Virus record (IMG/VR): IMGVR_UViG_3300011240_000036
Location: 1 to 6,739 of that record
Direction: 5' to 3' (one strand)
Origin: a virus
DNA length: 6,739 nucleotides
Shown: in pieces, positions 1,069 to 1,269 of the stretch
Numbering within the stretch: the stretch's first letter is position 1
How the letters are laid out: each line of letters begins with the position of its first letter
Notes under the pieces: generated by a model
The model's input: only the letters and a program-made list of their open reading frames with translations
The model's database searches: none
Told to the model about the DNA's origin: nothing
Program-made: the position numbers and the translations under genes

Positions 1069-1172
1069 AAAGATTCGTAATTTGTTTAGGTCTTTCATTT
1101 TTATTTTTGATTGCTTTTTCAACCTGCATGTTTCTTAGCTATGTTAGACAGCTAATTCTTTATGAAGACTGA
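1062..1172 (+). CDS. Tiny hydrophobic ORF d (36 aa, MIERFVICLGLSFLFLIAFSTCMFLSYVRQLILYED)
   Basis: GGAGA at 1052-1056 sits 5 nt before ATG 1062. One TM-length stretch. The TGA stop (1170-1172) abuts the dif-like site and hairpin. Confidence 0.45.
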   Translation: MIERFVICLGLSFLFLIAFSTCMFLSYVRQLILYED

Positions 1173-1269
1173 TTTCGTATAATGTAGCCGAAGATTATGT
1201 TACTAAGCCCCAGTGAGAAAATAGCCCATCTCACGGGGCTTTTTAACATCAATCTTCATTATACGAACA
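1172..1269. other. Inverted pair of dif-like XerC/XerD sites folding into a ~94-nt imperfect hairpin: candidate ssDNA attP (CTXphi-like) and/or packaging-signal hairpin
   Basis: + strand: ATTTCGTATAA(1172-1182)-TGTAGCCGAAGA(12 nt)-TTATGTTACTA(1195-1205). - strand (reverse complement of 1241-1269): TGTTCGTATAA-TGAAGAT(7 nt)-TGATGTTAAAA. Pairing is 1174-1184/1257-1267, 1191-1196/1251-1256, 1197-1202/1244-1249, 1205-1211/1235-1241 and 1213-1218/1229-1234 (36 bp), with a TAGCCG bulge at 1185-1190. The arms resemble the Acinetobacter XerC/D consensus ATTTCGTATAA-N6-TTATGTTAAAT. Confidence 0.55.
1205..1245 (+). terminator. Rho-independent terminator ending the + strand operon (apical part of the long hairpin)
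   Basis: AAGCCCC(A)GTGAGA - 10-nt loop - TCTCACGGGGCTT, followed by TTTT. It lies 33 nt after the last + strand ORF. Confidence 0.6.

Follow-up and report, generated by a model that had tools for sequence, protein, structure and literature searches.

To our knowledge, CTX-type integration of single-stranded DNA (ssDNA) has been worked out experimentally essentially only for the filamentous phage CTXphi, with Ypfphi and CUS-1phi being assigned to the same type, and the attP(+) of CTXphi is reportedly treated in studies by Val et al. in 2005 and Das et al. in 2010. The present analysis deals with a candidate site of this kind, a hairpin at positions 1172-1269 of a viral DNA of 6,739 nucleotides (IMG/VR record IMGVR_UViG_3300011240_000036, positions 1 to 6,739), this whole stretch being hereafter called the window. 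In CTXphi, the attP(+) is formed by attP1, with a central region of 12 bp, and attP2, with one of 5-7 bp, lying ~90 bp apart and upstream of the repressor gene; Ypfphi of Yersinia and CUS-1phi of E. coli are its CTX-type relatives (PMC4246890). This geometry agrees with the 12 and 7 bp given in a preliminary description of the window. Ypfphi and CUS-1phi, compared here by description only, are CTX-type Xer-exploiting filamentous prophages found outside Vibrio as tandem arrays at dif, with hosts and arm sequences that differ from those of the window phage. For the filamentous prophages of A. baumannii, arrays flanked on both sides by replication and regulation modules have been reported and the involvement of XerCD/dif suggested by analogy, the attachment site not being defined (PMC11209303). 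It is not defined either in the paper on the A. baumannii phage M02, where a term search returned no occurrence of Xer, attP or hairpin (PMC12285184), and a curated study of prophage borders is devoted to Vibrio only (PMC12715192).

The window shares a large part of its organization with CTXphi. Both harbour two inverted dif-like sites ~90 bp apart, one with an over-long central region (12 bp) and the other with one of 5-7 bp, placed between the last structural or cargo gene and a divergent repressor gene, and in both the + strand ssDNA would form a forked hairpin (according to an in silico fold for the window) without any integrase being encoded. The resemblance extends to the relatives of the window phage, which like CTXphi are inserted at dif with a crossover at the border of the XerC arm and regeneration of dif on one side, and which also occur as tandem arrays together with a satellite reduced to the replication module. 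The window phage differs from CTXphi in its host genus, its arms matching the dif of Acinetobacter, in its replication initiator (Rep), an Ff-type gII homolog with Phage_CRI and G2P_X_C domains, as had been proposed, and in the presence of an additional duplex-type site with a canonical spacer, absent from CTXphi and hereafter called site D. CTXphi was moreover worked out experimentally, the system of the window by comparison of sequences. We consider it very likely that integration at dif makes use of the hairpin as a Xer crossover site, and we assign a probability of roughly 80% to the full CTX-type ssDNA mechanism, with 1172-1269 as the attP(+). The fold and its conservation in the family, the insertion at dif, the two types of junction, the position of the exchange point, the arrays and the reduced elements described below were all established by comparing sequences.

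The two sites are inverted relative to each other and neither of their spacers, of 12 nt and 7 nt, is a usable 6-bp duplex spacer (Table 1). Their sequences and coordinates are those of the preliminary description, which had also correctly located them directly after the last + strand open reading frame (ORF), the TGA stop of ORF 1062-1172 overlapping the first base of site 1. Folding of 1160-1280 with DNA parameters, proposed there as a check, returned a forked hairpin composed of a XerC-arm duplex, a bulged central region containing the announced unpaired TAGCCG, and a XerD-arm duplex. Its predicted energy is -32.1 kcal/mol, compared with a mean of -9.0 +/- 2.6 for shuffled sequences (z = -8.9), none of the 200 shuffles folding as well as the native sequence, and 37 base pairs lie inside 1172-1269. 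The perfect 11-bp XerC-arm duplex that had been described is confirmed as an uninterrupted duplex of 11 bp (1174-1184 with 1257-1267), but it consists of 9 bp of the XerC arm followed by the TG of the central region, positions 1 and 2 of the arm being unpaired (AT versus TG). Past the bulge, 6 + 6 bp cover the XerD-side central bases and the XerD arms, the XerD-like arm of site 2 pairing with that of site 1 with a single bulged base (1250) on the 3' strand. The first four nucleotides of the site 1 central region, TGTA, are also those of the dif central region TGTATA, and the homology between the window (TGTA/GCCGAAGA) and dif (TGTA/TA) is found only on the XerC side.

The dif of Acinetobacter reads A(T/G)TTCGTATAA-TGTATA-TTATGTTAAAT in 24 loci, namely locus L138 and 23 others (loci related to the window are designated by the letter L and a number). 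The XerC arm of site 1 is identical to it over 11/11 positions and the XerD-like arms of sites 1 and 2 match it at 8/11 and 9/11 positions, so that the matches reported earlier to an Acinetobacter-type XerC site and to TTATGTTAAAT now apply to the arms of the chromosomal dif itself. In L138, a metagenome contig of 160 kb, this dif is unoccupied and reads hostL-AGTTCGTATAA-TGTATA-TTATGTTAAAT-hostR, where hostL and hostR are the left and right host flanks. Its right flank is orthologous to those of L003, L132 and L133, and its left flank corresponds to the hostL of L002 with 95.6% identity over 4.6 kb. At the left ends of L002, L003 and L005, large host ORFs extend up to a XerC arm, directly after which come the central region of site 1 and the hairpin. 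On the left side, orthology between L002 and L003 reaches as far as this arm, and in L003 (A. bouvetii) the hostL and hostR orthologous to those of L138 enclose a 9.3-kb insertion beginning at site 1. Read in L002 and L003 against L138, the left junction (attL) is composed of the host flank and the host XerC arm, then the central region of site 1 with the hairpin. L002 keeps the host-type arm AGTTCGTATAA on its left side and has the element-type arm ATTTCGTATAA at its right junction, which places the exchange point between arm position 2 and central position 5, an interval that includes the XerC cleavage site.

The right junction (attR) was sought by a targeted scan for the sequence predicted by a CTX-type event, which returned six loci. 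Five of them (L133-L137) display the succession of zot, small ORFs, the site-1 5' flank and the XerC arm, joined to TGTATA-TTATGTTAAAT and host DNA, and site D is intact inside the prophages of L134, L135 and L136. In the window, this 5' flank, which becomes the right prophage end, is the 3' end of ORF 1062-1172. The structural genes of L133 resemble those of the window (98% aa identity for g8 and 84% for zot; 79-86% nt) and this locus shares its hostR with A. bouvetii L003 at 100% identity over 4.1 kb. L134 and L136 are isolate genomes whose right flanks are orthologous, with 92% identity over 1.5 kb, and the 25-nt flank of L135 recurs without change 5' of site 1 in L076, L085 and L100. All the right junctions, over the 24 dif loci, present an intact TGTATA-TTATGTTAAAT. 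A natural marker is provided by a T/C variant at position 7 of the XerC arm: sites 1 and 2 carry matching variants in 42 of 45 free-phage cases and in only 2 of 10 at array junctions (Fisher p = 5e-6), this loss of agreement implying that the arm of site 1 is swapped during integration. No site-2-type flank was found at the 24 dif sites, as expected if only the + strand hairpin is available.

The prophage junctions are those expected of the CTX-type attP(+) acting at dif that the preliminary description had suggested, with a crossover where the XerC arm of site 1 meets the central region; integration at tRNA genes or other loci, which it had named as contrary evidence, was not seen in any of the loci. 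It was mistaken in predicting that the hairpin arms would be split between opposite prophage ends, since the left end keeps both of them and the right end receives only the site 1 XerC arm of 11 nt.

The same site-1 arrangement was retrieved in more than 120 viral contigs, including the A. baumannii phage M02, through a pattern scan requiring the site-1 arms, and 42 distinct hairpins in their native context were used for comparison. A protein-based scan restricted to one genome per species gave nine Acinetobacter loci, which together with Dulem virus 65 make up the unbiased Rep-based sample. The order of genes in the family is hairpin, repressor, rep, ssb, site D, structural genes, zot and small ORFs, back to the hairpin. 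XerC-arm positions 3-11 and both XerD-like arms are invariant in the 42 hairpins: the core TTATGTTA of the site 1 XerD-like arm is present in 42/42, having been part of the search pattern, and so is TTGATGTTAAA of the site 2 XerD-like arm. The arm cores are also kept in Dulem virus 65 and in all the Rep-ascertained loci that show the hairpin. The top-strand central region ranges from 8 to 13 nt and the bottom one always has 6 nt before TTGATGTTAAA, corresponding to spacers of 8-13 nt and 6-7 nt over the family; the first central base, T, is invariant and TG is found in 37 of the hairpins. Position 7 of the XerC arm co-varies between site 1 and site 2 (C:C in 26 hairpins, T:T in 13, mismatched in 3), appearing in the consensus fold as a C:G pair in 8 sequences and a T:A pair in 4, and the XerD-side central bases co-vary as well, with AAGA/AAGA in some hairpins and CAGA/CAGA in others. 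The tips of the relatives are several unrelated stem-loops, each followed by a T-rich run. Constrained arms combined with a freely replaced tip are the opposite of what a pure structural signal should show, and the opposite also of the drifting arms that had been put forward as the mark of a packaging signal.

Phage M02 (OQ693633) and the window share only two short stretches of nucleotide similarity, the hairpin and site D, which points to a sequence constraint imposed by the host. A second, seemingly unrelated Acinetobacter group, formed by inoviruses of ~8.2 kb with their own secretin, Zot, G5P and G2P (L029, L031, L044, L065 and about 20 further viral contigs), has the hairpin ATTTCGCATAA-TGATTTTCGGA-TTATGTTACAA ... 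ATTTCGCATAA-TGGCGGA-TTATGTGTAAA, with central regions of 11 nt and 7 nt; it possesses no site D and presents the same CTX-type right junction at dif. Dulem virus 65 (L131, PP511900.1), an inovirus from lemur saliva whose Rep is 58% identical to that of the window, harbours an inverted pair after zot (1420-1575) and no site D; in its site 2, a spacer of the canonical 6 nt is combined with an XerD arm that is near-perfect (ACTTCGTATAA-TGAGTA-TTATATTAAAT), and this virus might integrate either as duplex DNA or as a hairpin. A parallel variation of the central regions of sites 1, 2 and D with the host dif (TA instead of TG), suggested by L004, turned out not to be general, a site 1 beginning with TA co-occurring with a TGTATA site D or dif in L038, L056, L094 and L107.

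These data are consistent with the following scenario. The forked hairpin would arise by pairing of site 1 with the inverted site 2 in the + strand, either packaged or produced by rolling-circle replication, and would offer a XerC-arm duplex, a central region with the normal 6-7 nt on the bottom strand and a 6-nt bulge on the top strand, and a XerD-arm duplex, to which the host XerC and XerD would bind as to a dif mimic. XerC would cut the + strand after A1182 (1182/1183) and exchange it with the top strand of dif, ATTTCGTATAA-TGTATA-TTATGTTAAAT, the TGTA common to both beside the XerC arm stabilising the exchange. A second exchange would be blocked by the bulge and by the absence of XerD-side homology, leaving the intermediate to be resolved by replication. 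The product would run, from left to right, from hostL and the host XerC arm joined to TGTAGCC and the rest of the hairpin, through repressor, rep, ssb, site D, the structural genes and the small ORFs, to the phage XerC arm joined to TGTATA-TTATGTTAAAT and hostR. A functional dif would thereby be regenerated on the right, where more elements could insert and form arrays. Arrays, either of a phage and a mini-element of 2.1-2.8 kb or of tandem mini-elements, are common in the family. The binding of XerC and XerD, the catalysis by XerC alone, with its cleavage after A1182 and a purely structural part for XerD, the folded + ssDNA substrate, the replicative resolution and the irreversibility are proposed by analogy with CTXphi. 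Integron attC sites provide a further parallel, as folded ssDNA substrates with extrahelical bases in which a tyrosine recombinase exchanges one pair of strands and replication resolves the product, but their recombinase (IntI) and sequence are different and the comparison is an analogy only.

Several observations weigh against this scenario. No integrated copy of exactly this phage was found, its closest relative being a free contig (L075), and the insertion at dif and its junctions are established in the loci of relatives, not for this exact genome. Several of the supporting contigs are metagenome assemblies, possibly chimeric across the conserved hairpin; as a guard against chimeras, isolate genomes served as the source of the key junctions, or else these were verified through the identity of the host flanks. 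The search pattern required the site-1 arms, which inflates their invariance, and the unbiased Rep sample is small. The flank found at 16 of the 24 dif junctions is the end of ssb, the one preceding site D, and part of the dif traffic may pass via D rather than via the hairpin. Taken alone, the junctions would look the same whether the substrate was folded ssDNA or site 1 reacted in an unusual way as a duplex.

This last point corresponds to an alternative in which site 1 recombines with dif as a duplex, in the replicative form or as a cruciform, driven by XerC or by short homology over ATTTCGTATAATGTA, site 2 and the fold being irrelevant. The junction sequences are equally compatible with it, and 15 nt are identical between site 1 and dif or site D. 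We nevertheless regard it as improbable, a duplex site 1 having over the family a spacer of 8-13 bp that is incompatible with the known geometry of XerCD, and neither attP1 nor attP2 of CTXphi being a substrate as a duplex (PMC4246890). The invariance of both arms of site 2 and its co-variation with site 1 would also be unexplained if site 1 alone mattered. Finally, the junctions are located only at site 1 (XerC arm, central region and XerD arm on the + strand) and never at site 2, which fits an asymmetric availability of the + ssDNA.

Site D, at 3323-3350, had been overlooked in the preliminary description. Its XerC arm and central region match dif at 17/17 positions, its degenerate XerD arm always starts with ATAT instead of TTAT, and the site was found in more than 50 related contigs, always between the ssb/replication module and the structural genes. 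It is followed by AATCAATA[AG][CG]TTAG in the window, M02, L003, L004 and most D sites of the family. Among the integrative mobile elements exploiting Xer recombination (IMEX), the duplex attP of VGJphi and TLCphi (classes 2 and 3; PMC4246890, PMC9226527) are likewise single 28-bp duplex sites with a 6-bp spacer, and TLCphi, as D, has a degenerate XerD arm. The central region of D is fully identical to that of dif, in contrast to VGJphi which shares the XerC-side bases only; unlike for VGJphi and TLCphi, no D-mediated integration junction was observed and no XafT-like factor was identified here. Site D also contains two TATAAT hexamers and could double as promoter of the structural operon. Just downstream lie two tiny ORFs, 3378-3473 (31 aa) and 3476-3583 (35 aa), with Cys pairs suggesting a zinc ribbon; homologous small ORFs follow D in M02, L003 and L004.

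These properties raise the question of whether D could be the real attP, of the VGJphi/TLCphi dsDNA type, the hairpin serving only as a packaging signal or terminator. Beyond the match to dif and the wide occurrence of D, this alternative could call upon the ssb-end flank found before 16/24 dif sites and upon the nucleotide homology between the window and genome prophages, which ends at 3348-3351 in 6 of the 9 Acinetobacter loci, where a full dif follows the end of gV. It was in fact the first interpretation adopted, on the basis of the M02 record, of the end of homology near 3350 and of the first 14 dif junctions, all of the ssb-end kind; those 14 were a biased sample, site 1 having been required on the contig, and the D-only reading was dropped when the attR scan gave L133-L137 and the unoccupied dif of L138 confirmed attL. 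In 3/3 Rep-ascertained cases (L002, L003 and L005, the first two confirmed against L138), hostL at the left end of the array leads into site 1 and not into D, and in five prophages it is the site-1 flank that lies at dif, D being left intact within them. No hostL-D junction was present in any family locus, and a metagenome scan designed for it, allowing ATATGT after TGTATA, matched only the unoccupied site (low power, with a single match in all). Two flanks initially taken for host left flanks of such junctions, tacattacacatagttatttttacc and tagggattagtttaaactatataat, were rejected as they are ends of phage modules. Every ssb-end-dif junction can be explained by the integration of a mini-element through the hairpin or by a later deletion between D and dif in a hairpin-integrated prophage, and the ~8.2-kb Acinetobacter phages and Dulem virus 65 possess the hairpin without D. 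The role of D as exclusive attachment site is largely refuted by these observations, and we judge it very unlikely that the hairpin takes no part in integration for the benefit of D. Possible roles for D are those of an additional attP, of a deletion site or of a site for dimer resolution.

The GenBank record of M02 (L001, OQ693633.1), described as a circular complete genome, deserves a remark in this context. Its first 130 nt are repeated at 5809-5940, and the end of gV is joined to ACTTCGTATAA-TGTATA-TTATGTTAAAT (within 5809-5955) and then to non-phage DNA forming the last ~300 nt (5956-6243). This repeat, together with the DNA beyond a complete chromosomal dif, shows the record to be a slice of a prophage array including host DNA and not a phage circle.

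That the hairpin could be a purely morphogenetic signal, and/or a minus-strand origin with a terminator, without any role in recombination, is hardly tenable: it does lie at the position of the Ff intergenic region, after the morphogenesis genes and before the regulatory and replication region, a T-run comes after the GC stem of its tip and it is retained by the 2.1-2.8 kb mini-elements, but the prophage junctions fall exactly at its XerC arm, and its arms are constrained in sequence and match the host dif, while replacement is free in the tip, the part on which a structural signal should depend. It is likely that the hairpin, which we hold to be the attP(+), additionally serves in packaging or termination. 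The packaging hairpin of Ff phages (f1/M13) is likewise a long imperfect + strand hairpin after the morphogenesis genes with an overlapping or adjoining terminator; it differs in having no dif-like arms, Ff phages not integrating, whereas the base of the window hairpin is a sequence-conserved mimic of a Xer site. The tip is probably the terminator of the + strand operon, as judged by inspection, an automated terminator scan not having called it on the + strand (10-nt loop), and it may be an element of the packaging signal.

The mini-elements contain only the hairpin, repressor, rep and ssb. They were found alone at dif (L002, 6411-8663; L005, 9188-11567), in tandem (L007, L009, L101) and beside full phages (L003, L011), and seven contigs of this type (L025, L033, L039, L046, L061, L071, L106) have terminal direct repeats of 24-144 nt, which indicate circular or tandem forms. 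Their site-1 arm is usually the D-type variant, which connects the way they arose with recombination at D. RS1, the satellite of CTXphi, is their analogue in composition and in occurrence at dif, in tandem and beside full phages; they differ from it in looking like simple deletion derivatives bounded by the XerC arms of site 1 and site D, and no additional gene of the rstC kind was seen in them, no search being aimed at one. We tentatively consider a two-site Xer strategy, still rather doubtful, in which the hairpin would ensure CTX-type integration and D would provide a second dsDNA route or a programmed shedding of the structural module giving rise to mini-elements. Integration would place D, with its weakened XerD arm, and the regenerated dif as direct repeats, the loss of the structural module through Xer would yield the abundant RS1-like elements, and these would integrate via the hairpin and give a downstream origin for rolling-circle production of virions from arrays. 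Such a two-site strategy is not described for any IMEX in the literature searched.

Exchanges between modules were also apparent. In L133 (1-6616), a structural module similar to that of the window is joined to a different replication module without recognisable D, and replication and structural modules are shuffled among the phages of the family, the hairpin and D marking the break-points. Module exchange between phages may take place at the Xer sites.

Table 1. Features of the window around the inverted dif-like sites and site D.
Feature	Coordinates	Strand	Remarks
Last small + strand ORF, 36 aa	1062..1172	+	3' end forms the 5' flank of site 1
Site 1, XerC-binding arm	1172..1182	+	ATTTCGTATAA, identical to the Acinetobacter dif XerC arm in genomes
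Site 1, central region, 12 nt	1183..1194	+	TGTAGCCGAAGA; TG paired, TAGCCG (1185-1190) bulged, AAGA paired
Site 1, XerD-like arm	1195..1205	+	TTATGTTACTA, 8/11 versus dif TTATGTTAAAT
Hairpin tip, GC-rich stem-loop	1206..1240	+	AGCCCCAGTGAGA...TCTCACGGGGCT, then TTTTT (1241-1245)
Site 2, XerD-like arm	1241..1251	-	TGATGTTAAAA, 9/11 versus TTATGTTAAAT
Site 2, central region, 7 nt	1252..1258	-	TGAAGAT
Site 2, XerC arm	1259..1269	-	TGTTCGTATAA; complementary strand of the XerC-arm duplex
Divergent repressor-like ORF, 68 aa	1463..1669	-	Same position as rstR in CTXphi
Replication initiator, gII homolog	1781..3004	+	Pfam Phage_CRI 2.3e-40, G2P_X_C 4.4e-09
98-aa ORF at the position of the ssDNA-binding protein (gV)	3018..3314	+	3' flank precedes site D
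Duplex-type dif-like site D	3323..3350	+	ATTTCGTATAA-TGTATA-ATATGTAAATA, canonical 6-nt spacer
Conserved motif AATCAATAGGTTAG	3351..3364	+	Directly 3' of site D

The first 78 bases of the window recur at its end, and because of this repeat the window reads as a complete, circularly permuted circular genome of ~6661 nt belonging to an Acinetobacter filamentous phage. Its nearest sequenced relatives are Acinetobacter elements, the closest being the viral contig L075 (88-96% nt identity over most of the genome). Nearly all genes are on the + strand. The structural genes comprise a weak match to Inovirus coat B, a large ORF at the gIII position, a DUF2523 protein at the gVI position and Zot/gI, followed by several small ORFs, and the ORF list of the window contains no other long ORF. 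In agreement with the absence of integrase noted earlier, no integrase or recombinase domain was detected among the eight proteins scanned against Pfam, the only matches being those of Rep, coat, DUF2523 and Zot. An exact-sequence look-up of Rep gave no match on record, and a scan of the window against Rfam returned no family. The repressor-like ORF and the 98-aa ORF have no Pfam hit, and their putative roles, as repressor and as gV/ssb respectively, are suggested by their positions; the former is kept beside the hairpin in relatives and mini-elements, and the latter is conserved in relatives.

Other features of the window are worth mentioning. The 9-mer TTCGTATAA is present in six copies against 0.07 expected, including three exact copies outside the sites described above, two inside rep (1996-2004 and 2716-2724, - strand) and one after the g8 terminator (4116-4124, + strand). 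These three were deemed incidental, being without XerD-like partner arms and absent from L075; each of them recurs in some module-sharing relatives (L011, L054). The stretch from the hairpin to the 3' end of the repressor gene (1336-1461) is non-coding and displays 84-99% nt identity in 22 related loci, a better conservation than that of the neighbouring coding DNA; it starts with a - strand terminator hairpin (1363-1336), its fold z-score is only -2.0, and it could be a minus-strand origin or a small RNA. The intergenic region between repressor and rep (1686-1780) contains repeated GGTATACC/GTATAC palindromes (ccggtatacc, ctggtatacc) and a TGTTCGTATAC motif, which are probably operators or the plus-strand origin.

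A CTX-type attP is in itself already a known kind of site, and the two-site architecture is the part that could prove new. If the hairpin is the attP(+), the solution adopted by CTXphi would be shared by a large and diverse set of Acinetobacter filamentous phages with an Ff-type Rep. The exact borders of their prophages would be given, for a family whose members are missed or mis-bounded by prophage finders, and the arrays with replication modules on both sides would be explained. The integration would be predicted to be irreversible and the production of virions to depend on arrays, a mechanism that could be tested in a genetically tractable genus, for example with A. baylyi. Together, site D and the mini-elements provide a lead on the part that Xer sites may take in the modular evolution of inoviruses and in the birth of their satellites.

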